A DNA stretch of 64,000 nucleotides, from NCBI GenBank assembly GCA_037131105.1, contig JBAXRQ010000001.1:2039-66038 (forward strand), written 5' to 3'. The notes beneath the pieces are model-generated. The model worked only from the letters and a program-made list of their open reading frames with translations. It did not search any database and was not told where the DNA came from. Both the position numbers and the translations under genes were made by a program. The number at the start of each line of letters is the position of its first letter. Position 1 is the stretch's first letter. The DNA comes from a bacterium (GTDB lineage: Bacteria > Patescibacteriota > UBA1384 > CAILIB01). Shown one piece after another: positions 4,138 to 64,000 of the stretch.

Positions 4138-4214
4138 CGGTCTGTAGCTCAGTTGGTTAGAGCAACGCTCTTATAAGGCGTGGGTCCTGGGTTCAAGTCC
4201 CAGCAGACCGACCA
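4138..4214 (+). tRNA. tRNA-Ile with anticodon UAU (TAT), 77 nt, CCA encoded
   Basis: CGGTCTGTAGCTCAGTTGGTTAGAGCAACGCTCTTATAAGGCGTGGGTCCTGGGTTCAAGTCCCAGCAGACCGACCA. The backbone is nearly identical to bacterial tRNA-Ile(GAU). The anticodon loop CTTATAA gives UAU. Confidence 0.8.
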
Positions 4215-9557: not shown

Positions 9558-9639
9558 GGCGAAAGGAGAGGGGGATACTGACTTAGTTAGCAGTAACTAT
9601 AGCCAGTTTTCACGCGTCGGTCAAGGAGAAATCCTGCTT

Positions 9640-10332
9640 TTACTTGTTGTAGCAGGTAGTACTGCAGTAGGGGCCGTAGAGAACGTACTGGTAACGGCCG
9701 GTGCTGGTGGGATAGGCTACGGGAGCTGAGGCTGGCAAAGAAAGCGGTCCTACCTGGAATAGTCCGGAGTCCCCTGCCTTGTTCTCCAGGCCGACCTCCA
9801 GGGCGTAAGCTACCTGCTTAATTTCGGCTAGGTTCGAATAGGCGAGCAGGGAGTGGTCGTATTCGGTATGGTAGGTGTAGCCGTTGATCATGCCGCTGAA
9901 GCTGGTGCTAATGGCAGGGGCTCCTGTTGAAGCATCCTGGCCGCACTCAGCCCACGTGGCTCTGCTGCGGACCTTAAGCGGTCGGGGGTCTACAGGCATC
10001 TTGCCGCTACTAAAGCTCGATAAGGCCAGATTCTGGCCCATATTGGTATTGTCAATGGAGCTGTGCAACAGTTCTGACACGCACATCGTGGACTTGTTAG
10101 CGTGAATTGAAGTGTTATCCAGATTTACATTGACGGGGTATACGCCGTTATGGGTGTCAGCGAACTGATCGATCACCTTTCCAATCAGAAGTACGTCGCT
10201 GAGACGGCGACTGTCTCTGGCGCTGCTTTGGGCACCCTTAAGCCCGATAGTAAGGGCGCCAATTAGAACGCCTATTATGAATATCACTATCATCAGCTCG
10301 ATAAGGGTGAAGGCGGTGCGACGCATGGCCAT
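9640..10332 (-). CDS. type IV pilin-like protein (prepilin-type N-terminal cleavage/methylation domain)
   Basis: N-terminus MAMRRTAFTLIELMIVIFIIGVLIGA is a class III signal peptide followed by a hydrophobic helix. Confidence 0.75.
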   Translation of the reverse strand: MAMRRTAFTLIELMIVIFIIGVLIGALTIGLKGAQSSARDSRRLSDVLLIGKVIDQFADTHNGVYPVNVNLDNTSIHANKSTMCVSELLHSSIDNTNMGQNLALSSFSSGKMPVDPRPLKVRSRATWAECGQDASTGAPAISTSFSGMINGYTYHTEYDHSLLAYSNLAEIKQVAYALEVGLENKAGDSGLFQVGPLSLPASAPVAYPTSTGRYQYVLYGPYCSTTCYNK

Positions 10333-10974
10333 TTATTTGCAGATGAGGAAGAGATTGTCTGCAGTCAGGGGAGTGTGGGGATTACCAGGGCACGCCAGTT
10401 GCCCAGCACTGGGGTGGACCAGGTAGTAGTTGTCACCTGACGAGGCGCTCTCCAGGCGGGCTGCCACTATGTAACCTTCGCCCTGGTTTTGATAGAAGTA
10501 GCTCTGAGTGGTGTTGTTAGTAAGTAGATAGCCTGGACCATTGCTGGGGTTCGTATCCGAGTCCACGTAACGCTTCTCAAAAGGGAAAGGATTGATGTAT
10601 GAGGTCAGGTTGGGAATCCAAGACGGACTTGGTTTGTAATCATGGGTAAGGCCGGCGTCAGTACAGGTGGTAGCCGGGTCCTTGGCGACGTTGTAGGCGT
10701 AGTAGTAGGTTGAAGTACTGAAGAGGTACTGACACCCGTCGGTAACACTGGCAAGTACCTTGTCACCAGGAAATGCCTTGTTGCTGGCGTAATAGGTCTC
10801 AATCGCCGCTGAAAGAGCACTGATATCGGTCTTTCGCGTATTGTCGCGGGCCGAAGTCTGGGCACGCAGATAACTAGTGGTCGCCAGGGATGAGAGCAGC
10901 CCGATGATCACGATTACCACCATCAGTTCGATAAGAGTAAAGCCCTTATAACCTCTCCTGATATGCAATGACAT
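10333..10974 (-). CDS. type IV pilin (prepilin-type N-terminal cleavage/methylation domain)
   Basis: N-terminus RRGYKGFTLIELMVVIVIIGLLSSLA. Strong RBS AAAGGAGG. Its stop codon directly abuts the start of the next pilin. Confidence 0.8.
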   Translation of the reverse strand: MSLHIRRGYKGFTLIELMVVIVIIGLLSSLATTSYLRAQTSARDNTRKTDISALSAAIETYYASNKAFPGDKVLASVTDGCQYLFSTSTYYYAYNVAKDPATTCTDAGLTHDYKPSPSWIPNLTSYINPFPFEKRYVDSDTNPSNGPGYLLTNNTTQSYFYQNQGEGYIVAARLESASSGDNYYLVHPSAGQLACPGNPHTPLTADNLFLICK

Positions 10975-10994: not shown

Positions 10995-13667
10995 TTAGTC
11001 TACCATCTCGGGCGTGATACGCAATGGCACTTCCGGCTGGATCTGTCTCTGTAAGATCATCTCAGCCAACTTGCCCTCTACCTTGTCTTGGATCAGCCTA
11101 CGTAGCGGACGGGCGCCATACAGCGGGTCAAAGCCCGTTTGGGCGATCTTTGTCACAGTCGCCGGGTCGAACTCGATAATATACTTCTGCTCAGCCATCT
11201 TCTCAGTCACTTCCTTGAGCATCAGGGTAACCACCTGCTCTATTTCCGACTGGGTAAGCGGATGGAACGGTACGATAGCGTCAAACCGGTTGAGGAACTC
11301 GGGGCGGAAGTGGCTCTGCAGAAGGGCGCGTACCTGCTTAGGCAGCTCGTCAACTGACAATCCTTTCTGGAGAAGCTGAGCCAGCTCAGTACTTCCGGCG
11401 TTTGAGGTGGCAATGATAATGGTGTTGTTGAAGTGGACGGTCCTACCGGTGTTCTCGGTTAAGCGTCCGTCATCCAGCAGCTGCAGGAAGACGTTGAGGA
11501 CCTCGGGGCTGGCCTTCTCAAGCTCGTCCAGGAGTATCAGCGAGAAGGGGTTCTCTCGCACCGGCTGGGTCAGGCTGCCACCCTCGGTGTGCTCAGATGC
11601 GCTAGCTTGGGGAGCACCAATCAGGCGGTAGATTGAGGAGCTATCCTGGTACTCTGACATATCCAGCCTGATCATCGCCTCTTCCTTGCCATAGTAGATG
11701 GCAGCCAGGGCTTTGGCAGTCTCGGTCTTACCTACACCGGTAGGGCCAACGAACAGGAAGGTGGCAATAGGTCGTTCACCCTGGTGCAGGCCAGCCCTGG
11801 AACGACGGATGGCATTGGCCACAGCATGGATAGCTTCGAGCTGGCCGATTACTCGCATATGCAGGCTGTCCTCGAGATTGAGCAGGCGAGTAGCCTCCTG
11901 ATCATCGGCTTCACGTACTGGTATGTTGGTCTTCTTCTCCACGGTATCTAGGACGTCATCTTTGCTCACCCAGCTACCCTTGGCTAGTCGAACTGCTGAG
12001 GCTGCCTCATCAATCAGTCCTATAGCACTCTCGGGCAGCATCTTCTCAGGGAAGTACTTCTTGGCCATCTCGGCAGCGGTAGCAATGGCCGGATAGGTCA
12101 GGAAGACCTGTTGCTTGGCCTCTATACTAGGCGCCTCCTCTTCCAAGATCGTAATGGCCTGCTCCACGCTTACCTCCTTGATCTCAACAGTCTCCAGGAT
12201 GGCAGCCAATTGGGCATTTGACTCTACATAGCGGTGATAGTCGGCATAGGTCGCGGTAGTGATCACCTGCAGCTTACCCTGGTTAAGGGCGCTTGAGAGC
12301 AGGCTGGCGGCATCCAGGGCATTGTCAGAAGTGCCTACCAGTACCTGGATGTCTGGAATGGCCAATATCACGTTGCCGGCCTGACCTACCTCATCGAGGA
12401 TGGCCTGCATGTTCTGCTCACTGTTGGCTCCCTTATCCAGCAGGGCCGCTGAGTCCATACTGATAAGGCGCTTGTCCTTAAGAATCTCTGGTACATCCTC
12501 CTCGATCATGTGTAGTGCCAAGGCGCCTAGGAGGGTGTTCTTGCCTACGCCTGGCTCACCTAGCATAAGCAGGCTGTTCTTCTGGGTACGTCCCAGTACT
12601 TCTAGCATTTTCTGGATCTCAGCGTCGCGCACACTGACGCTGGCAACGGCACCATGTCCAGCCAAGCGAGTCAGGTCGGTGCTGTACTGGTCGAGAAACG
12701 GCGTAGGCAGAGCGGTCCAGGCCCGGTTCATAAAACCTTTAGGACGGGTACGCCCCTTTTCCAGCCAGAATGCCCACTTACGTGCTCGCTCCTGATCGGC
12801 GGCGAACCAGCGGCTGACAGCGTAAAACTCATCATAGGTTAGCTCGAAGGCTTTAAAGATGTCGGCAAATCCCTCAGGTCGGGCCAGGTAACTTAAGAGT
12901 ACGTCCTCCACCTCAACATAGGGGAACTGATGATCAAGCGCCTGGCCAAGTCCTTCGAACAGCCGCTGGCGCACTTCTGGCGCATAGGTGGCTGAGGAGA
13001 TGAGATTAGTAGTGGCTTCGGGCAAAGTTTTCTTGAGCTCATCTGAAAGCTCGGTGTAGCCCTTCTCCATCCGTGAGAACATACCTCGAATACGCTGCTG
13101 TCTGAGCAGAGTGATCAGGAAGACTGTGTCATTGACGAGGGGGGTATGCAGTTCGGCCGCCACGGCTGCCGCATCTCGAAGAAGAAGCTCTATCCGTTCG
13201 TTCGAGTAGTGATTCAGAGAGACGGTGGAACCGGCCGGTAGCGCCTGCAGGTCCTCTTCTAGCTGCATAAGGGGCAGGCGACTAGTCTGTACTGCCTTGA
13301 TCGAGGTGATGGACCACATACTGGCGAGGCCGGCTATGCCAAATATCGCCTCTGCTATTCCTCGGCTCCAAAAGATCTCGGTAAGTGAGGCGCCGTGTTC
13401 AATGATCAGGAGAATGAACGAAAGAAAGACAAATCCAAAGCTTGCTGCATAAATGCCTAGGCGGATCCAATGCTTGGCAGTCAGTGCTTCAGAGGCGTGA
13501 CTGGTCTCAACTGCTGAAAAATCAAACTGCAGGCGTTTGCCGTCGCCTGTCTGTAGCCAGCTGCCTACACCGGTACAGGTTGGACAAGTGAAAGCTGCAC
13601 CATGGCCAGCTTGAACCCCGGCACCCTGACAGGTCTGACAAATAGTGGTGACCAGGCCGGTGATCAT
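10995..13667 (-). CDS. Hsp100/Clp-family AAA+ ATPase with an N-terminal DnaJ-type zinc-finger pair and a TM helix; NBD1 Walker motifs are non-canonical
   Basis: N-terminus CQTCQGAGVQAGHGAAFTCPTCTGVG has two CxxCxGxG motifs. It is followed by a TM helix (WIRLGIYAASFGFVFLSFILLII), Clp-N-like repeats, NBD1 GEPGVGKNTLL with IPDIQ in place of IDE, and a canonical NBD2 (GPTGVGKTE, ILLDELEKA, sensor-2 GARPLRR). No M-domain and no ClpP-binding IGF/L loop were seen. Confidence 0.8.
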   Translation of the reverse strand: MITGLVTTICQTCQGAGVQAGHGAAFTCPTCTGVGSWLQTGDGKRLQFDFSAVETSHASEALTAKHWIRLGIYAASFGFVFLSFILLIIEHGASLTEIFWSRGIAEAIFGIAGLASMWSITSIKAVQTSRLPLMQLEEDLQALPAGSTVSLNHYSNERIELLLRDAAAVAAELHTPLVNDTVFLITLLRQQRIRGMFSRMEKGYTELSDELKKTLPEATTNLISSATYAPEVRQRLFEGLGQALDHQFPYVEVEDVLLSYLARPEGFADIFKAFELTYDEFYAVSRWFAADQERARKWAFWLEKGRTRPKGFMNRAWTALPTPFLDQYSTDLTRLAGHGAVASVSVRDAEIQKMLEVLGRTQKNSLLMLGEPGVGKNTLLGALALHMIEEDVPEILKDKRLISMDSAALLDKGANSEQNMQAILDEVGQAGNVILAIPDIQVLVGTSDNALDAASLLSSALNQGKLQVITTATYADYHRYVESNAQLAAILETVEIKEVSVEQAITILEEEAPSIEAKQQVFLTYPAIATAAEMAKKYFPEKMLPESAIGLIDEAASAVRLAKGSWVSKDDVLDTVEKKTNIPVREADDQEATRLLNLEDSLHMRVIGQLEAIHAVANAIRRSRAGLHQGERPIATFLFVGPTGVGKTETAKALAAIYYGKEEAMIRLDMSEYQDSSSIYRLIGAPQASASEHTEGGSLTQPVRENPFSLILLDELEKASPEVLNVFLQLLDDGRLTENTGRTVHFNNTIIIATSNAGSTELAQLLQKGLSVDELPKQVRALLQSHFRPEFLNRFDAIVPFHPLTQSEIEQVVTLMLKEVTEKMAEQKYIIEFDPATVTKIAQTGFDPLYGARPLRRLIQDKVEGKLAEMILQRQIQPEVPLRITPEMVD

Positions 13668-14002
13668 AGTCCGTCCCCTGTTACGACTGGCCCGGCTCCG
13701 AAGATTGAGCCGATCAGGCTGACTATGCAGATGATCGGAAAGAACAGCCAGACTACGTAGACTATCCCGTACAGCACGCCGAGGGTAAAGAAGGCTAGTC
13801 CACCTATAAAGATCCTAACCAGTCGTAGGCCAAAGCCTATGGCGCGCCCCTGTAGGGTGTAGTCCTGGAAAAGTGGCTTACGTAGGTTCTTGATGGTGTC
13901 GCGCACAGCAAGTGTAGCCTCTACTGAAGCGACGCTCTCAAGGAATGAGGCGTAGAACCATGACGCGCTGGTTACGTACCAGGTTGTAAGGACGTTGAGC
14001 AT
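13664..14002 (-). CDS. small membrane protein translationally coupled (ATGA overlap) to the Clp-like ATPase
   Basis: 112-aa ORF with 3 TM segments. Its stop overlaps the start codon of the downstream ATPase. Confidence 0.5.
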   Translation of the reverse strand: MLNVLTTWYVTSASWFYASFLESVASVEATLAVRDTIKNLRKPLFQDYTLQGRAIGFGLRLVRIFIGGLAFFTLGVLYGIVYVVWLFFPIICIVSLIGSIFGAGPVVTGDGL

Positions 14003-14117
14003 AAGGAGTTCCCCTCTCTAGATAGAGTCATTGTATGCCCTGGAGGGTAATGGGGCAAGGCGAGGACTGGTTGTGACAGGGAGATAAACCTGGTATGAAA
14101 GAAGGGGAGGTGACAGG

Positions 14118-15092: not shown

Positions 15093-15168
15093 TGGTGGGC
15101 CCTAGAGGACTCGAACCTCTGACATCTTCGGTGTAAACGAAGCGCTCTACCAGCTGAGCTAAGAGCCC
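15093..15168 (-). tRNA. tRNA-Val (anticodon TAC)
   Basis: GGGCTCTTAGCTCAGCTGGTAGAGCGCTTCGTTTACACCGAAGATGTCAGAGGTTCGAGTCCTCTAGGGCCCACCA. Confidence 0.85.
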
Positions 15169-15298
15169 GAGTGAGGGGACGGTTCTGCGAAGCGGAACAG
15201 AGTCCTCACCACCCGGCAATGTGCATTTGACGAGCGAGAGAGGCGGCATTTACGAAGTAAATGCAGAGCCCCTATCTACCTATGGAAGCTAATGTTTA

Positions 15299-15374
15299 TG
15301 GTGCCGAACCTCAGAATCGAACTGAGTACGCCTGCCTCTTCAGGGCAGCGCTCTACCAATGAGCTAGTTCGGCA
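15299..15374 (-). tRNA. tRNA-Phe (anticodon GAA)
   Basis: TGCCGAACTAGCTCATTGGTAGAGCGCTGCCCTGAAGAGGCAGGCGTACTCAGTTCGATTCTGAGGTTCGGCACCA. Confidence 0.85.
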
Positions 15375-15401
15375 GGCCGCCGGCTGTCAAATTGTAAATC
15401 A

Positions 15402-15420
15402 ATGGAAGAGGACTCGACCT
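15402..15420 (-). repeat. degenerate copy of tRNA-Leu(CAG) T-arm/3' region
   Basis: ggaagaggactcgacc versus ggagagaggactcgaacc of the tRNA, about 115 bp beyond the tRNA 3' end. Confidence 0.45.
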
Positions 15421-15489
15421 ATGTCGCTTTGCGACGGTTCCGACCTGCACCAGCAGGTCAGATAGGGACTCTCGTCCTCTCGTAGGCAT

Positions 15490-15535
15490 AATTGTTGCCA
15501 TTTCCATGGATTAATCCATGGAAATGGCAACAATT
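15490..15535. repeat. 46-bp perfect palindrome abutting the 3' end of tRNA-Leu(CAG)
   Basis: AATTGTTGCCATTTCCATGGATTAATCCATGGAAATGGCAACAATT. It probably forms a 21-bp-stem terminator hairpin. Confidence 0.8.
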
Positions 15536-15620
15536 GGTGCCGGAGAGAGGACTCGAACCTCCACGACCTTGCGATCACTGGCTTCTGAAGCCAGCGTGTC
15601 TACCATTCCACCACCCCGGC
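15535..15620 (-). tRNA. tRNA-Leu (anticodon CAG), 86 nt, long variable arm
   Basis: GCCGGGGTGGTGGAATGGTAGACACGCTGGCTTCAGAAGCCAGTGATCGCAAGGTCGTGGAGGTTCGAGTCCTCTCTCCGGCACCA. Confidence 0.85.
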
Positions 15621-15648
15621 AGGGTGCTATGCAACAAAAATTGTGAAG

Positions 15649-15870
15649 TTACACCCGGGTAAGGTAGATCTGCAGTACCGCGAGGGCGGCGAAGCTGACT
15701 CCGAATATAATGGTCAGATAAAACAGGATCTTCTCAGCTCCCCTTCTGCTGGTATATACGGCGCCGGTGTCTCCGAAGGCATCTCCCAAGCCGCTACCGC
15801 GCTGCTGAAGCAGGATGGAGGCTACAAGAAGAAAGGTGACGATGATGCTAGCAATCTGCAGAACAAGCAT
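15649..15870 (-). CDS. secG: preprotein translocase subunit SecG
   Basis: MLVLQIASIIVTFLLVASILLQQRGSGLGDAFG...RRGAEKILFYLTIIFGVSFAALAV shows the two TM helices and the glycine-rich loop typical of SecG. Confidence 0.8.
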   Translation of the reverse strand: MLVLQIASIIVTFLLVASILLQQRGSGLGDAFGDTGAVYTSRRGAEKILFYLTIIFGVSFAALAVLQIYLTRV

Positions 15871-15882
15871 GGAGGTGAGTTA

Positions 15883-15956
<74 letters not shown>

Positions 15957-16000
15957 TGATTCCCATTCCGCGGTTTGTTCTTCCTAGGGCAGTGTCTTGA

Positions 16001-16086
16001 GCTACACACACGATATCTCTCAGTCCGAACAGTAGGCGTCAGCAGCGTGTAGCGACTGTGAGGCTGAGAGATATCGTGTGTGTAGC
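16001..16086. repeat. 23-bp perfect inverted repeat (GCTACACACACGATATCTCTCAG ... CTGAGAGATATCGTGTGTGTAGC) with a 40-nt spacer, just beyond the tRNA-Gly 3' end
   Basis: The arms are at 16001-16023 and 16064-16086. Likely a large stem-loop. Confidence 0.75.
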
Positions 16087-16093
16087 AGTTTTA

Positions 16094-16167
16094 TGGAGCG
16101 GGTAAGGGGAGTCGGACCCCTGTCTCCACCATGGCAAGGTGATGTAATACCGTTATACCATACCCGC
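16094..16167 (-). tRNA. tRNA-Gly (anticodon GCC)
   Basis: GCGGGTATGGTATAACGGTATTACATCACCTTGCCATGGTGGAGACAGGGGTCCGACTCCCCTTACCCGCTCCA. Confidence 0.8.
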
Positions 16168-29800: not shown

Positions 29801-32800
29801 ATGGTTAATGAGGGCGACTGGGGAAGGGGCGTTCCCCCATCCGAAGAAAACAATAGAGAGCCTGATGCTCTGACAGCGGCTGCTTATGACGCGGCCCTCT
29901 TTTCCGCGGGACAGGCGGACTCTCCCGAGGTGCCCGCTTCTCCTGAGGATTCTCCTAAACTGAAAGTGGAGGAGGTGCATCGTTCCGCCAAGACAATTCT
30001 CGCTACTGTCGCCAACATGGTGGGGCCAAATGCAGCCCCTAGGATTGAGATGACAGGATTTGAATCTCCTGACCGGATCATCACTCAGTTTCAGGGGTAT
30101 ACCGTGGTGCTTAACAAGTCGCGGTACTTCGTCTTTGACGATGAAGGGAACGAAGTCGGTGAAAATATGCCAAGAGACGCACACCTGACGGCTGAATGGG
30201 ACGCCATTGAGCTAATAAGTGCTGGTGGTAAGGAGCCAAATGTCTCAGAATCACCAAGGGGCAGATCTAATACCGTTGAGCAGTATCCGGCTGTAACCCA
30301 TTCTTACTTGAGAAGAGCTATCCGAGAACAAGGTGGTGTCAGTATGCAAACGCCCATGCACCGTGTGGATACGATCTATTCACCAGAGCTTGAAAGCATA
30401 GACCCGATGGTTCTTGATAACGGCAACATCTTGATGTTCCCTGGTCGAAAGCATTCTGCCTATGTGGGGTATGTCAGTAATCCTGGCGGCGACCCGGTGG
30501 CACCAAGGCACTGGAAGAGGATAGACAGCTTTACTCCAATTGATGACTTACCGCTTGAAGCGCAGGATATTGCCCGTGAAATTGCTAAGGTTGATAACCG
30601 TGGAACAGCTAGACTAAATGATGAGCTGCGTATCAAATATGCTTTGGACCGTGTGGAGATCTATCGCGGCGCAATCCTTCTGGGGATGGATCCCGAGTTC
30701 AAGGATAATGTCCAGGGCATTGATACCTCTTTCGCCGATACGAAACACCCGGAAATAATATACTACTACTCCAGTCGCAATCCCCAGAAGCTTATCCGCA
30801 TGGATACCTCGGCAGATGATGTTGGCAAATGGGCTGCCACTCAGACTGACCTGATATTTCCCCAGACATACGGTTTTTTGAATGATCTAAAAATGGATCC
30901 TTCTGGCACATTGCTCTGCGGTAAGACCGATAAGGGCTTCGTTATCCTGGACAAGGATACCCTGGAGGAGGTGTACTATTTTAATGATTTTTGCACAGAG
31001 CTGTGGTTTGACGGCGAAGGAAAGGTTCGCATCATGGACGCCGAAGGCTATATCCATACTTTTGCTATGGATATCCCCACTTGGAAGGCCCAGGCAGTTG
31101 CAAGGAACCTGGAGCCGCTGACGGTTCAGAGTCCCTTTACCGCTCCTCAGGCCGCAGCGGGTCAGGGCCCCCAGCCAAGCGGCATGGAGCACCTAAACCC
31201 TTCCCGTGCAGAGTATACGCGACAGCTCTCAGTCTTCATTGACCAGGCGACGACGTTGGCGCAGCTAGAGGATGTGCGGATTCAGTCGATAGGTGACCTG
31301 ATCTTCCAACTGATGGGACAGGGTCTTACCAAAGAAGAAGCGAAGTATGTTACGGCAGAGGCCAAGGCCTTGCTGGTGGAGAAGCAGAAGACACTTGCCA
31401 GCCAGGAGGCTGCCAAGCTTATTGCAGACCTCAGAGGTCATCTCGGTGGCAGCGATCTCACCCTTGCCCGTCTTGCCGAGCTGAAGGCCGATGCCGGCCA
31501 GCTGGATGCCCTCAAAGGCCTGGTGGATCAGCCGTATAGAGATCAGATCCGTATCCTTGAAGAGAATATCGCCCAGAAGCTGGCCGAAGTATTTAGGCAG
31601 GAAGCTGAGACTATCAAGAAAAGCATAGGTGAGCTGGTGGGGCATGCCAAGGCTGAGCTAGAGGGATTTGCCTCGCTTACCCAGTTTACTGATTGGCGTG
31701 AGTTCGCCTATCCCCAGTACCGTTCTCGCCTAGGAGGACTGCTTCAGGACTGTCCCATTGAGGCCACTGAATCCCGGCAGATCATTCTTGACGGCTCACG
31801 GAGTCTCCAGGAGCTGGCAGACCAGTATGAGAACACGTTCACCACCCAGTATGCAAAGGTACGGGAGAAGGCAGCTGATCAGACTGCCCAGATGGAATCT
31901 TCCATACGGACGGAGATTGATTCGTTCAGTGCACGGCTACGGGCCAAGGGCTTTACCTTGCGATCCGATGCCGAGGACTATATCTCCCGTAGTGGTGCGG
32001 TGGCTCAGATCGAACAGGATATCGCGGCCATGCAGAGCTCCCACCCCACCCATGCCGAGGAGCTGGACCGGGTCTTTAATGTAACTAAGGCCAATCTTCT
32101 GGCCGAAGTGAGTCGGGGCGCCTCAACCCAGGTGGAGGCCAACGGCCAGCAGATGGCGGCTTTCGGGAGCACTCTGTTCCCGGTCTGGGAGAGCAAGGTC
32201 AAGGAGCGCAAGGAGAAGAAGGTGGAAGTCAGCTTTGCCGCTAACGAGGCTTCCCGAGGCCCCGGCGTGCAGGCCAACGAAGTGATGGGCGATGTCTCGG
32301 TGGTCATCACGAACTCAGAAGGACATAAGGAAGCGGTACGCCTCTGGGAGTCCATGGGCGATACTGAGGACCTCAGGCGGTATGGCGACAGCATCAAGGC
32401 AATGGGCCCCTCATACGTCACCAAGGAGGATTTTGACGGCATTGCCAGAGGGTACCGTACCTGGACGCGCGACGACGGCGCTTCGGTGATGGCCTCGTTG
32501 GAGGCTAAGCGGAAGGAGCTGGGCCTTGAAGCGGTGAATGAGCGGATCGACGCTCTGTATAAGGAAGCTGGAAGCTCTCGTGATGGGCGCAGGGAATTGC
32601 GCCAGTCCAGTTCCGAATTGCGGGAGCTGAGGAGGCAGCAGGCTGAGCTGCTTGAGCAGTATGCTGACTATTATGCCAAGCAGAACGTGGGACTCTACAA
32701 GCGTCTGGACGCCATAGCCGGCCTGCCGGAGCCAGAGTACACCAACGGCCGCGGCTTCGTGCCTGAGTGGCAGAGCCACTGGGTACTTGACGTCGACACC

Positions 32801-33835
32801 GAGAAGAACCTGGAGAAGATGGCGGAGCTGCTACTGATGCAGCTGGAGACCCATGAGGGCATTCTTAATCTCAAAGGCCATGCCGGTACGGGAAAGGACG
32901 TCCTAGTGAAGATGTTCTGCGAGCTGGCCAAGCGGCCGTATTTCCCTATGGACTGTTCCAAGTGGACCACTGAGTTTGAGCTTTCAGAGGATGTGGTCCT
33001 CGAGGCTCAGGACGGGGCCACCCAGACGGTGAAGGTTCCTTCGGTAGTACTGCAGGCAGTCGAGACGCCGGGCGCTGTCATGTACTTCAACGAGTTCAAC
33101 GCAATGCCTGAGCAGGCCCAGATCTTCCTACACGGTCTGTTTGACGAAAAGCGCTCCCTGACCCTGAAGACCAGTTCGGGCAAGGCCACCAAGGCAGACC
33201 CCAGCGTACTCTTCATTTCGTCGATGAACCCCGGTTACCCCGGCACCTTTGATCCCCAATTCGCTACCAAGAGTCGCATGGTCTCCATGGATATCGGCTA
33301 TCCTGACCAGTATAAGGATCCGGCCGAGGGCGATCCCAATCGCAATGCCATGCTCTCTTCCTCTGAGGCCCTGCGTATGGCCCGCGAGGTCAAATCGGTC
33401 TCCCGTCTCACCTATGAGTCTGATGCTGACAGAAATGAGTTTGGCATGCTGTGGGACCGGTATGTGAACGGTGTTGAACGAGGTGGTCCTGAGCCCACTA
33501 CTCTCCAGAAATACGACCTGGACGTAATACTGGCAGTCGTCCAGTTTGGCAACAAGCTTCGCGACGCCTTCATGATGCAATATGACGGTACGCCGCAGCA
33601 GAAGCGGGATACTAGCAGGGACCTACCGGTCACCCAGCCGTTCACAGGCCGCGAAATCAGGCGCTGCGCCTACGCCTTGAACAAGATTCCTTTGGTTGAG
33701 AAGGACGCGGATCCTGAGCAGGTGGCACGTAACCTCATCACCACCTTCTTTCTCTCTCACATAGATGACTCATCCAAGGTCGCCAAGATTGCGTCGGCCA
33801 TGGAGACCTGGACCTCGGCCAAACGGGTTCGTTAA
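29801..33835 (+). CDS. 1344-aa multidomain protein with a C-terminal MoxR/AAA_5-like ATPase domain that has non-canonical Walker motifs
   Basis: The N-terminal ~460 aa are globular and aromatic-rich (YYYSS, YYFNDF). About 450 aa of predicted coiled coil follow. Then GHAGTGKDV (Walker A with Asp after Lys), VMYFNEFNAMPEQAQIFLHGLF (Walker B NE rather than DE) and FISSMNPGYPGTFDPQFATKSRM (sensor/Arg region like ATMNP...SRF of MoxR/dynein-type AAA). A ~200-aa C-terminal helical extension completes the protein. Confidence 0.7.
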   Translation: MVNEGDWGRGVPPSEENNREPDALTAAAYDAALFSAGQADSPEVPASPEDSPKLKVEEVHRSAKTILATVANMVGPNAAPRIEMTGFESPDRIITQFQGYTVVLNKSRYFVFDDEGNEVGENMPRDAHLTAEWDAIELISAGGKEPNVSESPRGRSNTVEQYPAVTHSYLRRAIREQGGVSMQTPMHRVDTIYSPELESIDPMVLDNGNILMFPGRKHSAYVGYVSNPGGDPVAPRHWKRIDSFTPIDDLPLEAQDIAREIAKVDNRGTARLNDELRIKYALDRVEIYRGAILLGMDPEFKDNVQGIDTSFADTKHPEIIYYYSSRNPQKLIRMDTSADDVGKWAATQTDLIFPQTYGFLNDLKMDPSGTLLCGKTDKGFVILDKDTLEEVYYFNDFCTELWFDGEGKVRIMDAEGYIHTFAMDIPTWKAQAVARNLEPLTVQSPFTAPQAAAGQGPQPSGMEHLNPSRAEYTRQLSVFIDQATTLAQLEDVRIQSIGDLIFQLMGQGLTKEEAKYVTAEAKALLVEKQKTLASQEAAKLIADLRGHLGGSDLTLARLAELKADAGQLDALKGLVDQPYRDQIRILEENIAQKLAEVFRQEAETIKKSIGELVGHAKAELEGFASLTQFTDWREFAYPQYRSRLGGLLQDCPIEATESRQIILDGSRSLQELADQYENTFTTQYAKVREKAADQTAQMESSIRTEIDSFSARLRAKGFTLRSDAEDYISRSGAVAQIEQDIAAMQSSHPTHAEELDRVFNVTKANLLAEVSRGASTQVEANGQQMAAFGSTLFPVWESKVKERKEKKVEVSFAANEASRGPGVQANEVMGDVSVVITNSEGHKEAVRLWESMGDTEDLRRYGDSIKAMGPSYVTKEDFDGIARGYRTWTRDDGASVMASLEAKRKELGLEAVNERIDALYKEAGSSRDGRRELRQSSSELRELRRQQAELLEQYADYYAKQNVGLYKRLDAIAGLPEPEYTNGRGFVPEWQSHWVLDVDTEKNLEKMAELLLMQLETHEGILNLKGHAGTGKDVLVKMFCELAKRPYFPMDCSKWTTEFELSEDVVLEAQDGATQTVKVPSVVLQAVETPGAVMYFNEFNAMPEQAQIFLHGLFDEKRSLTLKTSSGKATKADPSVLFISSMNPGYPGTFDPQFATKSRMVSMDIGYPDQYKDPAEGDPNRNAMLSSSEALRMAREVKSVSRLTYESDADRNEFGMLWDRYVNGVERGGPEPTTLQKYDLDVILAVVQFGNKLRDAFMMQYDGTPQQKRDTSRDLPVTQPFTGREIRRCAYALNKIPLVEKDADPEQVARNLITTFFLSHIDDSSKVAKIASAMETWTSAKRVR

Positions 33836-33843
33836 AGGGTAAT

Positions 33844-36800
33844 ATGCTCGACCACTTAAACTTGCCTCCCCTTCCTGAAGCGGAGAAACCCCCGCAGAGA
33901 GAGCATCTCCGCCATATGGGGATATTGTCAGATATGGGCAGGGAGCTGGGAGCACCGGTGCTCCCAGGTAAGCAGTGGGGGTATCATTATCCGGGTAACG
34001 GCGCCCAGCGGGCAGACTTGCTTAAGGGTCTCTTGGACGGGACCGTCAGCTCTGAGGAGGCTGCCCTTGGCCTGCGCCCTGATGCGATCACCTATAGCCT
34101 TGAGGATCTTCAGACTGAAGGGTTTGAAGCTGTAAGCGGGAGACTGCGGGCAGTCACCTCGACTTTGCAGAACTATGACTACGAAGGGCTGGCCGAGTTC
34201 GTCGGCCAGATGCAGGGTAAGGACGTCTCGCCAGAGGAGGCTCAGGCCCTCTATGACCGCCTGACTGGCGGATACGTCCAGAAACGGGCCATGGACAGCT
34301 TTGGAAGCACCGGCCGCAGACAGATGGAGGCCGCCCTGCAGGGCGAGTCAAGGCGCCTTCTGGAATCCACGGGGAGCACTCCTCAGGAGAGAGTGCTCCA
34401 GGCGCTACGGGCCCACTGGCTGTGTGAGGGGGCCAGGACACTGAGGAGTGATGATCGCGACGGAATAGCCGCTGCGCTGTCTCAGGACGAGCTCAGGGCC
34501 TATGAGGGACTGAAGGAGGACTATCTGCAGTATATGTCAGGCGATAAGGATGCGTATCGCCGCTTAGCGACGTATGTCCAGGAGAGTTTCGGGAGAGCTG
34601 AGCCGCTAGAGAGCAGCCAGAGCATGCAGGACCTGGAGAAGGAACTTGAGCCGTATATGGACCAAGCAGTTCCGCCTGGAATGCCTTCTGATCCGGCCAT
34701 ACCGCCAGATGACAATGACGAATACCATACGCCTCCGCCCCGACCTGGCCGGGAGTCAGGAGTGGAGTCGGAGCCCCAGAGGCCTATCTTTGAGATCGCC
34801 CCTACCGGTAGTAGCACCAAGCCGCTGACCGGCTACTATATATCCGGCCGCAAAAGCTACTATGACGAGGACGCCAAGGTCTGGAGCAAGCGGAAGCAGC
34901 TTATGCCCTATTCTGAGTCTCCCGCCGGTACTGACCGCCAGGTCCTGAGCGGCCGCATTGATGCTGGTTTGAAGTCTGTTCCCATCCCCAACGGCTATGC
35001 CCTAGATGCTGCCACCTTGCGGGTTCAGCAGGGGACAGCGACCCTTTCTCGGGATCAGAACGGCTGTTTCTATATCCAGTCCACTGAGACCTCGGACTTT
35101 ACCGTAGAATTTTTGAAGGAGCCGACTGCATTTATCAGCCCGCCCATAGGAGAGGATGTGCGTGACGTTCATAGGGGGAGACTCTCGGATCAGACCGAGC
35201 AGTTCCTGGCCACTGTGAGGGGCACTCCTACCGAGATGGCAGTCAAGGCGCAGGGGTACATCCGCTCCAACCATTTCTACCCCGGTGGAGGGGATCTGAA
35301 GGCCGCCCAAGCCCTCCAACACAAGCTCAGGTCTGAGTCGACGGCGGACACCTACTTCCAGAACCTGGATGCCTCGGAATACTTGGAGTGTTACTCGTCC
35401 CTCAACCTGTGGATTGCCATGATGCGTAGCGTTGATGTACCCTGTCGAGTGGTGCTCGGGCACATGATAGATTCGGCACGTGACGGCAAGGCGGCTATGG
35501 ATGCCACTACCGGGCACGCCTGGGGTGAGTTCTGGGATGGAAGTGAGTGGCGTCGCATTGACCCGACTCCTCCTCCCAAGCCAGAGGACAAGAAGCCCGA
35601 AGGTGACCCAGGGCAGGGTGAGCCCACTCCTAGCCAGCAGGCAGAGGACGGAGGTATCGAAGGCGATACCAGCCAGCCGACCCAGACCGGCGAATCCGGT
35701 GAACAGGCCGGCCAGGGCCAGGGGTCTGGACAAGAGATGGGCCAGGTCAGTGACCAGGAGATGGAAGAAGCCCAGTCCCAGCTTGAGCAGGCTCAAAACG
35801 AGCTGCAAAAAATGGATGACCGTAAGGCGGAGCTCAATCAGAAGATCCAGGATGCTAAGGATTTCAACGACCTCAAGGAACTGCACGACAAGATGGAGAA
35901 GGAAGACCTGCTAGACGATATGAAGGAAGACCTTGTGAAGCGTCTGGAGGCCAAGCAGGAGCAGATGAAGGACAATATCAAAGAGCAGCTGGACGAGATG
36001 GTTGAGGACGGCTTTATGGACGAAGATAAGCGGAAGCAGCTTGAGGAAGCACTGGATGAAGGTGCTCTCGAGAAGCTTGACCAGATGAAGCAGCAGCTTG
36101 AGAGGGAGAGTGGCCTCTACAATGAGTACGATGCTATCCGGCAGGAGGTGCAGCCGCTGGTGGATGAGTGGCTTGGGTATTTTCTGGAGCGCCTTCCTCG
36201 CCAGGATGAAATCGAAGTAGATGAGGACGCTTTGGCTCGAAGGGGAACCTTCAATAGGCGTTCAGCTATGCGGGCCCGCAACCTGTTATTCGGCACAGTC
36301 CGCAATCCTCATATCATTAATCCGGTGGTGAAACCCCTGTTCCTGGCCAAGATGATGGTGGACGTCAGCGGTTCGATGCAGGGTGAGAAGCTGAGGAGCG
36401 CTCGCAAGACACTGGTATTTCTCTCTGAACTCTTTAGTGCCATTAAGGAGCAGTTTGGGTATATCAAGTTTTCCATCGACATCTTCTCTGACAACCTGAC
36501 CACCATCAAGGGGTTTGATCAAGACTACGATCGAAATGAGCGGTATGATTTCAAGGACGGAAGCACTTCCACGGTAAAGGTGCGCCTTATGGAGAGACTT
36601 GCCAGCAAGGGCGGCACCAACATGCTGGCCGCCATTACTGCGGCAGCTGATGATCTTACCGAACAAGCTTCGGATAACCCTGAGTTTGCCTCCGCCTTTT
36701 ACTTTATGGGAGACGGGGGTGACACCTGTGGAAACGGTGCCAAGGTGAGGGAGTTCATGCAAACCAAGCAAAGGGGGGGATTTGGCGAGCATATGCACTC

Positions 36801-36960
36801 GGCTATTCTTCTGGGAGACGAGTCGCAGCGACGGACGCTGAGCGACATATTCGGAGAAGACCACACGGCTGTGGCTCCGAACTTCGATGCATTGATCGAG
36901 ACCTTTATGGGGCAGTTTGATGATGATATTAGTCAATATCTTTCTGATAAGACCCGGTAA
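33844..36960 (+). CDS. 1038-aa protein with a transglutaminase-like Cys-protease core, an acidic linker with coiled coil, and a C-terminal vWA (MIDAS) domain
   Basis: TGase-like core: LECYSSLNLWIAMMRSVDVPCRVVLGH...TTGHAWGEFWDGSEWRRIDPT (Cys, His, Asp). A Gly/Gln/Glu-rich linker and a coiled coil (QLEQAQNELQKMDDRKAELNQK...) follow. vWA MIDAS motifs are DVSGSM, GGTNM and MGDGGDT. The gene starts 9 bp after the previous stop and is followed by terminator AAGCGCCCC-tttgtca-GGGGCGCTT at 36988-37018. Confidence 0.7.
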   Translation: MLDHLNLPPLPEAEKPPQREHLRHMGILSDMGRELGAPVLPGKQWGYHYPGNGAQRADLLKGLLDGTVSSEEAALGLRPDAITYSLEDLQTEGFEAVSGRLRAVTSTLQNYDYEGLAEFVGQMQGKDVSPEEAQALYDRLTGGYVQKRAMDSFGSTGRRQMEAALQGESRRLLESTGSTPQERVLQALRAHWLCEGARTLRSDDRDGIAAALSQDELRAYEGLKEDYLQYMSGDKDAYRRLATYVQESFGRAEPLESSQSMQDLEKELEPYMDQAVPPGMPSDPAIPPDDNDEYHTPPPRPGRESGVESEPQRPIFEIAPTGSSTKPLTGYYISGRKSYYDEDAKVWSKRKQLMPYSESPAGTDRQVLSGRIDAGLKSVPIPNGYALDAATLRVQQGTATLSRDQNGCFYIQSTETSDFTVEFLKEPTAFISPPIGEDVRDVHRGRLSDQTEQFLATVRGTPTEMAVKAQGYIRSNHFYPGGGDLKAAQALQHKLRSESTADTYFQNLDASEYLECYSSLNLWIAMMRSVDVPCRVVLGHMIDSARDGKAAMDATTGHAWGEFWDGSEWRRIDPTPPPKPEDKKPEGDPGQGEPTPSQQAEDGGIEGDTSQPTQTGESGEQAGQGQGSGQEMGQVSDQEMEEAQSQLEQAQNELQKMDDRKAELNQKIQDAKDFNDLKELHDKMEKEDLLDDMKEDLVKRLEAKQEQMKDNIKEQLDEMVEDGFMDEDKRKQLEEALDEGALEKLDQMKQQLERESGLYNEYDAIRQEVQPLVDEWLGYFLERLPRQDEIEVDEDALARRGTFNRRSAMRARNLLFGTVRNPHIINPVVKPLFLAKMMVDVSGSMQGEKLRSARKTLVFLSELFSAIKEQFGYIKFSIDIFSDNLTTIKGFDQDYDRNERYDFKDGSTSTVKVRLMERLASKGGTNMLAAITAAADDLTEQASDNPEFASAFYFMGDGGDTCGNGAKVREFMQTKQRGGFGEHMHSAILLGDESQRRTLSDIFGEDHTAVAPNFDALIETFMGQFDDDISQYLSDKTR

Positions 36961-62611: not shown

Positions 62612-64000
62612 TTATTTCTTCTTGGTAGCTGGCGTCGTACTAGTGTTACAGCTTCCGACAATGTTGTGGTCCCCAGGCTTGAGAAATACTACAATTACTT
62701 CGTTCGGCTCAAAGTCTATGGTGGCATTGCATACGTTGAAGCTGCCGGTGTGGTCGATGCTTACCGATAGGCGACCCTTCTCGTTCATATTCATGGGATT
62801 GATGACACCGCTACTGTCAGTCTCTCCCTTATAATAGCTGCTGCCATCCTTTTTATCGATGACGCGAACCTGGGTCCCTGGTACAGCACGATGGGTGGTA
62901 GCATTGATGACGTGGAACTCTACATTGTAGTTTGGCAGAGTCCCAGGAGGAATGACTGGAGGGGTGCCATAGGTTGGTGTAAGGTCACAGGACTCTTCGC
63001 TGCCGAGGTCACCATAACTTAGGGTGACGGAAATGGAGATTCCGGGCTTGAAGGATACTTCTGCGGTACAGCCTGCATAATCTGACCGCTGGGCCTGGAA
63101 GGTGAAGGTCTGGAGATCGTTGCCGCTGTACATCAGGAAGGTAAGGGTGCTGTCGCCGCCAGTGGATCCCTTGTCATATCCATCGACAAAGATCGAGGCA
63201 GAGTCCATGGGGGTGTAGCCCTCGCTACTCAGTACAGTGACCTTTACGGGATAGGGAGGGGCAGTACCGGTAGGGGGATCGCCTCCGCCGGGTGGAGGGG
63301 GTTTTCCATCTCCAGGTGTAGTGGGTTTACCACCGCCAAGACCAGCCGTGCAGGAGTCGGTGCCCTTGGCCATGCGTATGGTAAGGGCGGCCCCAGGGGT
63401 AAAGCTAAGCTGGCTATTGCAGTCCTTGTAGCCAGTGGCAGCCACGCTTATGGAGTAGGTGCCCCGGTTGTTCATGTTGAAGGTAAGGGTGCCTGTGGCG
63501 GTGGTCATGCCCTTGTTCACATAGACAGGAGGGGTGTCTGCAGCGAAAGCTGTAAAGTCTTTAAGGAAGGGGTTTAATGCTGCTGTGGCTGGAGGGTCGA
63601 CCACGCTCACCGTGGCGTTTGGCACTGGGTTGTTGGTTTGGTCGACTACGCTGGCGCTGACACTGAAGGAGGCTACATGATTCGGAGCGTTGGTGCCGGT
63701 GCCGTTTATTGGGTCGTTGGTGCCCGGGGTATTAGGACTCGAAGTGGTGATGTCGTTGCCGACGGTGATGCCGATCCTGATGATAAAGAAGGTGGCCACA
63801 ACGATGGCAATACCGATGACCGCATTAATGATGCCTTGACGGGCTACTTTCGCCTTCTCAGGATTGCCGTTGGAGGTGATGTATTGGACGCCGTTATATA
63901 TGATGTATAGTACTGCTAGAGCACCGGCCAGCAGGGTGATGATAGTAAAGGCCTGCGTATAAATGGTTCCGATAAGGGCTACCGCATCTGAATTTCCCAC
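62612..64000 (-). CDS. giant T4SS-pilin-like fusion protein (partial; N-terminus beyond window end)
   Basis: The visible N-terminal portion LIGTIYTQAFTIITLLAGALAVLYIIYNGVQYITSNGNPEKAKVARQGIINAVIGIAIVVATFFIIR is homologous to the 139-aa pilin-like protein at 51723. It continues into a >380-aa Thr/Pro/Gly-rich beta-rich extracellular region. Confidence 0.55.
   Translation of the reverse strand: MGNSDAVALIGTIYTQAFTIITLLAGALAVLYIIYNGVQYITSNGNPEKAKVARQGIINAVIGIAIVVATFFIIRIGITVGNDITTSSPNTPGTNDPINGTGTNAPNHVASFSVSASVVDQTNNPVPNATVSVVDPPATAALNPFLKDFTAFAADTPPVYVNKGMTTATGTLTFNMNNRGTYSISVAATGYKDCNSQLSFTPGAALTIRMAKGTDSCTAGLGGGKPTTPGDGKPPPPGGGDPPTGTAPPYPVKVTVLSSEGYTPMDSASIFVDGYDKGSTGGDSTLTFLMYSGNDLQTFTFQAQRSDYAGCTAEVSFKPGISISVTLSYGDLGSEESCDLTPTYGTPPVIPPGTLPNYNVEFHVINATTHRAVPGTQVRVIDKKDGSSYYKGETDSSGVINPMNMNEKGRLSVSIDHTGSFNVCNATIDFEPNEVIVVFLKPGDHNIVGSCNTSTTPATKKK

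Follow-up and report, generated by a model that had tools for sequence, protein, structure and literature searches.

Hsp100 machines are the textbook example of hand-over-hand polypeptide threading by pore-loop tyrosines. Among the AAA+ proteins that act at membranes, FtsH has a two-helix topology with both ends inside, and HSP101 of Plasmodium, which is not itself membrane-anchored, keeps its pore tyrosines and docks on a pore by its C-terminal D2 face for protein export. Little is understood of the cell envelope, the pili and the host attachment of Patescibacteria, a very large and mostly uncultured radiation. Torsins, which are AAA+ relatives of the Clp/Hsp100 proteins, have no aromatic pore loops; they associate with membranes and act together with cofactors anchored there (PMC5425593). 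Here we describe a gene pair in a 64 000-nucleotide stretch of a patescibacterial contig (JBAXRQ010000001.1, positions 2039 to 66 038; 'the window'), which encodes a membrane-anchored Hsp100/Clp-like ATPase and a small membrane partner. By fold and domains the ATPase belongs to the Hsp100/Clp superfamily, yet it lacks the defining features of ClpB, ClpC, ClpA and ClpE, and it also lacks two general Hsp100 features, namely competence of both nucleotide sites and aromatic pore loops.

Domain architecture and class placement

The ATPase gene and its parts lie in the window as follows (aa, amino acid positions in the ATPase):

10995..13667 (-): membrane-anchored Hsp100/Clp-like ATPase, 890 aa (open reading frame, Pfam, NCBIfam, alignment, AlphaFold2 and Foldseek)
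13503..13652 (-): putative N-terminal zinc ribbon, aa 6-55, two CxxCxGxG motifs (conserved cysteines, weak profile matches, AlphaFold2 beta-hairpins)
13299..13496 (-): transmembrane hairpin of two helices (aa 58-91, aa 104-123) joined by an outer loop that is short and acidic (hydropathy, AlphaFold2 helices)
12750..13271 (-): N-domain of Clp_N type at aa 133-306, most similar to the N-domains of ClpC (profile match, ClpC alignment)
12690..12776 (-): family-specific basic linker W.FW.ERGR.RPKG.MNRAWTA.PTP.LD, aa 298-326 (family alignment)
11913..12689 (-): first nucleotide-binding domain (NBD1, D1), degenerate predicted pseudo-ATPase ring (GKN, IPD, arginine fingers lost, pore loop deleted)
10998..11912 (-): second nucleotide-binding domain (NBD2, D2), intact ATPase with ClpB_D2-small and no ClpP loop (Pfam, 130-member alignment)
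11577..11618 (-): D2 pore loop GAPQASASEHTEGG, aa 684-697, GYVG tyrosine replaced and no aromatic residue left

The open reading frame (ORF) encodes 890 aa, as an earlier note on this DNA had stated, and an identical protein is on public record under the name 'MAG: AAA family ATPase [bacterium]'. From the N-terminus it comprises the zinc ribbon with its two CxxCxGxG motifs, a two-helix hairpin, a ClpC-like N-domain, the basic linker, D1 and D2. Pfam reports AAA_2 (4e-54), ClpB_D2-small (4e-23) and AAA_lid_9 (2e-13), and the protein has the make-up of a class-I Hsp100, with two tandem AAA+ modules, AAA_lid_9 and a C-terminal ClpB_D2-small domain; its alignment to ClpB and ClpC falls into two aligned stretches. 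An AlphaFold2 model with the family alignment as input (predicted local distance difference test, pLDDT, 84.3; predicted template-modelling score, pTM, 0.72) places beta-hairpins at residues 6-55, then two helices (58-91, 104-123), a helical domain (133-306) and a low-confidence stretch (306-318), followed by D1 and D2. Searching the PDB with the full-length model, Foldseek recovered ClpC and ClpB and nothing else, with ClpC aligned over about 808 columns.

The nearest NCBIfam models are ClpB, ClpA, ClpK, ClpG and ClpV, and the protein scores far under every curated cut-off (562 versus 1232 bits for ClpB, TIGR03346; 475 versus 993 bits for ClpA). Motifs were read from a residue-level alignment to Thermus thermophilus ClpB and Bacillus subtilis ClpC, together with a 33-sequence alignment. 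The family is gapped at columns 659-787 of the latter, where ClpB (P0119) has about 120 residues and ClpC about 50, and the M-domain is thus absent. Pfam did not find the UVR motif (PF02151) in the ATPase; the motif is listed on ClpC matches from P0053 on and on none of P0001-P0052. The ClpP-docking loop ([ILV]G[FL]) is likewise absent from D2, owing to an 8-residue deletion relative to ClpC at a site that reads QKGLSVDELP. Both the missing M-domain and the missing ClpP loop had been read from the single sequence in the earlier note and are borne out by the family alignment. The implication is that DnaK coupling would not be expected, because the M-domain is missing, and nor would proteolysis, because the ClpP loop is missing. 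Pfam places no peptidase domain on the protein, which has no M41 zinc protease of the FtsH type. An ordinary ClpC, ClpA or ClpB identity was rejected on these grounds: all curated cut-offs were missed, and M-domain, UVR motif and ClpP loop are absent.

Nucleotide sites and pore loops of the two rings

The two rings differ sharply in what they have retained. The Walker A motif of D1 reads GEPGVGKNT, with Asn replacing Thr, and its Walker B motif reads ILAIPDIQ, compared to ILFIDE.H in ClpB and ClpC. This agrees with the earlier reading of NBD1 (GEPGVGKNT, IPDIQ), and neither the ClpB/ClpC alignment nor the 33-sequence alignment restores canonical Walker residues to the domain. Two losses go beyond those already noted: D1 has lost both of its arginine fingers (ERRF to AILE), and a deletion has removed its pore loop, K[YF]RGEFE (KYRGEFE). 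By contrast, Walker A, Walker B, sensor 1, arginine finger and sensor 2 of D2 are all canonical in the window protein. The protein therefore does not have the two competent nucleotide sites of a class-I Hsp100, with GKN, IPD and no arginine finger in D1 against an intact D2.

The earlier description of NBD2 as canonical holds for its ATPase motifs and does not extend to its pore loop, where the GYVG tyrosine is replaced. The loop reads GAPQASASEH, compared to GAPPGYVGY in ClpB and ClpC, and the window protein has no aromatic residue anywhere in it. Aromatic pore loops are thus missing from both rings, the D1 loop (KYR) being deleted and the D2 tyrosine (GYVG) replaced. Retention was counted over 130 full-length members aligned to ClpC and ClpB:

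D2 Walker A K and T: 130/130 members
D2 Walker B D and E: 130/130 members
D2 sensor-1 N: 130/130 members
D2 arginine finger: 130/130 members
D2 sensor-2 R: 129/130 members
D1 Walker B DE: 3/130 members
D1 Walker A GK[ST]: 58/130 members
D1 arginine finger: 15/130 members
D1 pore aromatic: 0/130 members
D2 aromatic at the GYVG position: 6/130 members

In the window protein, small or polar residues take the place of the D2 pore tyrosine. The asymmetry between D2 and D1 is what strong purifying selection on D2 catalysis would leave behind, with constraint relaxed for both D1 catalysis and the threading loops. Judged from these counts, D1 is a predicted pseudo-ATPase and D2 the predicted sole motor.

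Zinc ribbon, membrane hairpin, N-domain and linker

The two CxxCxGxG motifs described in the earlier note, CQTCQGAG (aa 10-17) and CPTCTGVG (aa 28-35), are present and their cysteines are kept in orthologues, where C10, C13, G15, C28 and C31 are either invariant or conserved to 90% or more. Since two motifs amount to four cysteines, these probably form one Zn site. Profile matches to the region are weak: over aa 8-46, Anti-TRAP (PF15777; 28 versus 32 bits) and DnaJ_CXXCXGXG (PF00684; 16.8 versus 32.7 bits) both fall below the Pfam cut-off, and a profile of the N-terminal 345 residues gave Anti-TRAP 3lcz at E = 0.006 and the DnaJ zinc finger at E = 0.11. At least two CxxC motifs occur in 100 of the 130 family members, and at least two lie within the first 70 residues in 56 of 82 full-length representatives.

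Kyte-Doolittle hydropathy places hydrophobic segments at aa ~67-91 and ~103-123 (peaks 2.35 and 1.44), both kept across the family; one clade carries a 35-45-residue Ser/Thr/Pro-rich loop between them. The membrane anchor proposed earlier as one transmembrane helix is therefore real as an anchor, and hydropathy and AlphaFold2 resolve it as two hydrophobic helices. Nor is it peculiar to this genome, as might be the case for a ClpC variant whose orthologues have no anchor, since an N-terminal hydrophobic segment is found in 81 of the 82 full-length representatives. Charges read directly from the sequence are basic on the N- and C-terminal outer flanks of the hairpin and acidic in the connecting loop. 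Hydropathy, the model and the charges as judged by eye thus agree on a hairpin of two ~20-residue hydrophobic helices with basic cytoplasmic flanks. The basic flanks and acidic loop point to a topology with both ends inside, the same as that of FtsH, which would place zinc ribbon and ATPase both in the cytoplasm and fits an N-domain/D1 ring face turned toward the membrane. A chance origin of the cysteine and hydrophobic motifs was rejected, both being conserved in orthologues.

The Clp-N-like repeats reported earlier behind the anchor are confirmed by the 345-residue family profile, in which aa 156-284 match ClpC residues 6-136 (E = 1e-10) as a Clp_N double repeat; PF02861 is also precomputed on many orthologues. 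Between the N-domain and D1 lies a linker that is absent from ClpB and ClpC and is among the best-conserved parts of the family (P309 in 116/130, N314 in 115/130 and T318 in 125/130 members). Its residues 306-318 have a pLDDT of 44-51, i.e. the linker is predicted to be disordered in the monomer. Being conserved and yet predicted disordered, it would look like an interface, and we regard it as an interface candidate.

A small membrane partner encoded directly upstream

The second gene of the pair precedes the ATPase gene on the same strand:

13664..14002 (-): small membrane partner, 112 aa (ATGA overlap, hidden Markov model, AlphaFold2)

Its stop codon overlaps the ATPase start by ATGA, as had been noticed before. 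The protein opens with a helix, which is followed by an invariant loop, PLFQDY..GR.IGF..R, and by a hydrophobic stretch (~39 residues) around the invariant W85 and P89; across homologues the loop motif runs P43...G52...R60 (PL[FY]QD..G..[IL]GF..R). The AlphaFold2 model (pLDDT 88.6) has helices at residues 2-31, 33-38 and 50-101. No Pfam or NCBIfam family covers the partner. Pfam on 24 homologues at E <= 1 returned only scattered, non-recurrent weak matches (PspC-TM, holin, caveolin), Foldseek with the partner model gave no PDB match under E = 2, and the public names of its homologues are all 'hypothetical protein'.

Because a word-index search with the single partner sequence gave 2 proteins, a profile search and our own hidden Markov model (HMM) on the loci were needed. 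In 39 of 41 loci the HMM, built from the upstream ORFs, matches an ORF whose end touches or overlaps the start of the ATPase gene; the contig end truncates the remaining 2. It also recognises the 120- and 123-aa ORFs upstream of the ATPase in the distant loci L042 (Uhrbacteria, E = 1e-7) and L043 (E = 1e-9). The partner is thus a strict companion, directly upstream of the ATPase in every testable locus. The earlier note gave it passing mention; the coupling it described is real, and it is the partner, rather than the pilins, that accompanies the ATPase family-wide. Universal partner and restricted pilins together make the two-gene module, and not the pilins, the family-wide unit.

A conserved family of Patescibacteria

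A word-indexed search found 51 further full-length relatives (873-942 aa, 40-60% identity), set off from ordinary ClpC by a score gap from 642 to 485 bits. Exhaustive phmmer with the N-terminal 345 aa against 1.84 billion cluster representatives extended this to at least 126 clusters (50% identity), mostly of 800-950 aa, so that the ATPase represents a conserved Patescibacteria family and not a one-off. Members and loci carry the names Patescibacteria group, Paceibacterota/Paceibacteria, Berkelbacteria, Uhrbacteria, Wolfe-, Colwell- and Harrisonbacteria; the family is seen in several Patescibacteria classes only. One typical Paceibacteria-type member with its partner (L036, QYPD01000012.1) lies on a contig labelled as a Spirochaetia metagenome-assembled genome, probably a mis-binned patescibacterium. 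In the shorter Paceibacteria-type branch (~835-850 aa) the zinc ribbon is missing; anchor, linker and dead D1 persist, and the D2 loop is shortened (GSPDG..-..G).

Annotation pipelines name family members ClpC, ClpA or AAA family ATPase. The full-text literature searched, with subscription-only literature outside its coverage, holds no description of the family. Together with the missed NCBIfam cut-offs and the score gap, this sustains the earlier judgement that the protein is not a described Hsp100 subtype, and the sequences support a distinct, conserved one.

Pilin genes and gene neighbourhood

Two further genes and two promoter-like sites complete the neighbourhood:

10333..10974 (-): type IV pilin/pseudopilin-like gene 1, 213 aa (N_methyl, TIGR02532, GspG-like N-terminus)
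9640..10332 (-): second type IV pilin-like gene, 230 aa, immediately adjoining pilin gene 1 (N_methyl prepilin motif)
14030..14058 (-): promoter-like site a short way ahead of the small ORF (promoter scan)
9596-9624: second promoter-like site, past pilin gene 2 and ahead of the DHH gene (promoter scan)

Pilin gene 1 starts 20 nt past the ATPase stop; the presence of two pilins on the same strand, and this distance to the first of them, are as first described. Both products begin with a class III signal peptide bearing the N-methylation motif G/A|F[TS]L[IV]E, and their N-terminal helix is hydrophobic; N_methyl is matched in Pfam at 5e-9 and 2e-6, and TIGR02532 in NCBIfam. Ala stands in place of the usual Gly at prepilin position -1 in pilin 2 of the window and in both pilins of L007 (10853-11928), with RRTA|FTLIE and KRA|FTIVE as the sites.

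Pilin genes, numbering 1 to 8, follow the ATPase directly on the same strand at 4-46 nt in each of the ten loci from the window's own sub-lineage that extend downstream (L001, L003, L005, L007, L008, L009, L011, L013, L014 and L015). These loci share the order small ORF, ATPase, pilins, DHH, S15 and PNPase, with SecG and YchF upstream in most. Elsewhere the synteny does not hold: in 18 Paceibacteria-type loci the N-terminal sequences of the downstream genes, compared by eye, resemble those of housekeeping genes, PolX- and NUDIX-type ones among them, and neither L042 nor L043 has pilin-related genes at that place. The Clp-pilin order, which the earlier note proposed to check in related genomes, is therefore constant within the sub-lineage and absent from the 18 Paceibacteria-type and 2 distant loci. 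Of the window's ORFs that were scanned, none was recognised as a pilus assembly gene such as pilB, pilC, pilM or pilT.

A promoter and terminator scan, which overall did not exceed chance, placed no terminator-like site in the gap that separates ATPase and pilins. There is weak evidence for a four-gene transcription unit of small ORF, ATPase and two pilins. In L043 (3849-8745) the module comes immediately after rpmH-rnpA-yidD-yidC, with all genes in one orientation, and SecG lies 1-4 kb upstream of the module in most loci of the window's lineage; the yidC and SecG neighbourhoods make a link of the module to membrane-protein biogenesis possible.

Other features of the window

Rfam matches in the window are tRNAs alone. 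One, at 4138-4214 (+), is a tRNA-Ile with anticodon TAT (UAU); such a tRNA is uncommon in bacteria, where AUA is usually read by a lysidine-modified CAU tRNA. A cluster of five tRNAs (Val, Phe, Leu, Cys, Gly) at 15093-16167 (-) lies between the module and the SecG gene. At 29801-36960 (+) a 1344-aa ORF, with a C-terminal AAA_5 (MoxR/dynein-type) match alone, is followed by a 1038-aa ORF with a transglutaminase core, a large pair for a genome of ~0.95 Mb. Divergent ORFs of ~660 aa at 47245-49242 (-) and 49384-51369 (+) have no Pfam match. An 824-aa protein at 52139-54613 (-) combines DUF4118, PAS, GGDEF and EAL, i.e. the full hardware of cyclic di-GMP signalling in a reduced Patescibacteria genome, and an ORF at 62612-64000 (-) that passes the window end carries T4SS_pilin at its N-terminus together with a CarboxypepD_reg-like domain.

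A possible mode of action

We infer function here from architecture and gene order, and tentatively favour a membrane-facing complex of a single-motor Hsp100 and its partner that would remodel membrane-proximal proteins, probably without threading them, with pilins as candidate clients in this lineage only. The two-helix hairpin tethers the ATPase to the cytoplasmic membrane, and the protein would probably assemble as an Hsp100-type hexamer with D1 as a structural ring. Co-occurrence and gene overlap suggest that ATPase and partner join in one complex. The N-domain/D1 face would be apposed to the inner face of the membrane in the geometry of FtsH and Msp1, which makes membrane-embedded or membrane-proximal clients plausible; ATP hydrolysis in D2 would then drive the remodelling, holding or release of such proteins, with zinc ribbon and N-domain as putative binding sites for clients or adaptors. 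Processive threading in the manner of ClpB or ClpC most likely does not take place, and because the pore tyrosines of both rings, the M-domain and the ClpP loop are lacking, non-processive remodelling or holding is favoured over unfolding. In the sub-lineage, where the module is apparently co-transcribed with the two pilin genes, prepilins or membrane-stored pilins would be the best candidate clients, as a local and not a family-wide function. The suggestion of the earlier note, a dedicated membrane unfoldase possibly acting on pilins, is thus upheld in its membrane location; pore aromatics are missing from both rings, and pilins are confined to the sub-lineage. The label 'unfoldase' is itself doubtful, because the threading aromatics are missing nearly family-wide.

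Several observations weigh against this interpretation. Loss of the canonical tyrosines does not prove loss of threading: many close relatives keep Tyr or Phe at the second aromatic position of the D2 loop (S[YF]TEGG), where the window protein has His, as do some ClpBs, and about 21 distant members with a shortened loop have a Tyr before the following LT (GYLT), which might re-create an aromatic-hydrophobic pair. (A regular-expression count of aromatics, which cut some D2 loops at 'FT', was used qualitatively; the alignment-based counts are those relied on.) A few basal members moreover keep PPGY or a canonical D1 Walker B: P0133 (L043) retains GKT and LLIDEIH in D1, and P0185 (L042) retains GAPPGYAG in D2. 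As basal members retain PPGY or a canonical D1 (GKT and DE), the family probably descends from a threading enzyme through a degeneration series, for which P0133 and P0185 offer natural material usable in ancestral reconstruction. Pilins as clients face difficulties of their own. Since the whole block is syntenic in the lineage, their adjacency may be inherited synteny rather than selected; whether or not pilins are adjacent is reflected in none of the ATPase's features, the zinc ribbon being present in 100/130 members; and the promoter scan found 6 sites versus 3.8 +/- 1.6 expected, which is not significant.

The pore-loop losses could also mean that the ATPase is no protein processor at all. 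A Torsin-like, nucleotide-driven switch, in which the D2 cycle is passed through the hairpin and the hairpin-like partner to change membrane organisation, is a weaker candidate than the remodelling complex but the nearest to it. The switch might act, for example, on the handling of lipids, on assembly of the envelope or the pilus base, or as a gate in a membrane ring made up of 12-24 helices. Almost every member has lost the pore aromatics of both rings and yet keeps its ATPase site under strict selection, which such a switch would account for. Torsins, too, are Clp/Hsp100 relatives that lack aromatic pore loops, associate with membranes and depend on membrane cofactors (PMC5425593). It would also suit an obligate partner with a long hydrophobic segment around invariant W85 and P89, a conserved linker that is predicted disordered in the monomer, as expected of an interface, and housekeeping neighbourhoods across classes, which suggest a core cell-biological role. 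However, D2 keeps its own arginine finger in 130/130 members, unlike Torsins; the retained substrate-type N-domain and DnaJ-type zinc ribbon suggest protein clients; some members keep or re-create the aromatic-hydrophobic pair in the D2 loop; and the analogy is an architectural one. Less likely again is its boldest form, by analogy an unrecognised Patescibacteria-wide membrane machine in which a pore-loop-less, single-motor Hsp100 hexamer would pass its ATP cycle through 12-24 helices as a counterpart of the Torsin-cofactor assembly and not as an unfoldase. If true, such a machine would remodel membrane, gate a conduit, or organise the envelope and pilus assembly.

The constant pilin adjacency raises instead the idea of a dedicated extractor, possible for this sub-lineage only and on balance unlikely, that would pull prepilins or retracted pilins from the membrane for quality control or recycling. 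That the pilins stay 4-46 nt downstream on the same strand in 10/10 loci while their copy number varies from 1 to 8, the lack of a terminator-like site before them and the promoter-like site past pilin 2 all speak for it, as does the anchor, which in the AlphaFold2 model would set the ring entrance against the membrane as in FtsH and Msp1. Against this, the same module occurs without pilins in the Paceibacteria-type, Uhrbacteria and L043 loci, the window scan yielded no pilus assembly gene, the threading tyrosines are absent, and lineage-wide synteny of the flanking block may explain the adjacency. It is improbable that the protein is a plain ClpB or ClpC orthologue, engaged in cytosolic disaggregation or ClpP-coupled degradation and only incidentally tethered, even if its best sequence and structure matches are ClpB and ClpC, its N-domain is ClpC-like and public pipelines use those names: besides the missed cut-offs and the absent M-domain, UVR motif and ClpP loop, D1 is dead, the pore tyrosines of both rings are missing, and anchor and partner are conserved. 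Several degenerate canonical motifs might even hint at a decaying, functionless gene, which is hardly credible given an intact frame, full-length orthologues in more than 100 clusters, D2 catalytic residues invariant in 129-130 of 130 members, and conservation of the family linker and the partner gene.

Returning to the remodelling complex, its interest lies in what the family has kept and lost. It keeps a perfectly conserved motor, but the pore tyrosines have been discarded, as have the first motor and the two known output couplings, to DnaK and to ClpP. Its gains are a membrane anchor, a putative zinc ribbon and a small membrane protein as obligate partner. We postulate that it probably works differently from every described Hsp100, and that the two-gene module could reveal a non-threading mode of Hsp100 action or a core envelope function specific to Patescibacteria. 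The public names ClpC and ClpA meanwhile mislead metabolic and proteostasis reconstructions.

Comparison with known systems

The closest relatives in sequence and fold are ClpC and ClpB, with which the ATPase shares the Clp_N double-repeat N-domain, two AAA+ modules, AAA_lid_9, ClpB_D2-small and matching D2 motifs. It differs from both in adding a zinc ribbon and a transmembrane hairpin before the N-domain, a basic linker and an obligate membrane partner, and in lacking the M-domain/UVR region, the ClpP loop, the D1 Walker B, arginine fingers and pore loop, and the D2 pore tyrosine. A Cys4 zinc module at the N-terminus of a Clp ATPase is known from the zinc-binding domains of ClpE and ClpX, and the CxxCxGxG motif type from DnaJ and Anti-TRAP. 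However, there are two motifs here (one predicted Zn site) versus four in DnaJ, the module is split from the ATPase by the membrane hairpin, and its scores lie below the Pfam cut-offs.

Among membrane-associated AAA+ proteins, FtsH and Msp1/ATAD1 resemble the ATPase in having an N-terminal anchor that puts the ring entry face against the membrane. Those proteins are of the classic AAA clade and have a single ring whose pore loops are aromatic, and FtsH has a protease domain; none of this applies here. Torsins with their cofactors LAP1 and LULL1 are eukaryotic and ER-lumenal (ER, endoplasmic reticulum), have one AAA+ module and receive their arginine finger from the cofactor, whereas the ATPase here has two rings and its own D2 arginine finger and so falls outside the Torsin definition. 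The partner likewise is a small helical protein and not a degenerate AAA+ fold, and the resemblance to Torsins, an argument by analogy, would be functional and not one of membership. Lastly, the PTEX HSP101/EXP2 assembly of Plasmodium, whose HSP101 structures are among the PDB matches, also ties an Hsp100 hexamer to a membrane protein assembly. The anchor of the patescibacterial ATPase is N-terminal, giving a geometry that is the reverse of that of HSP101.

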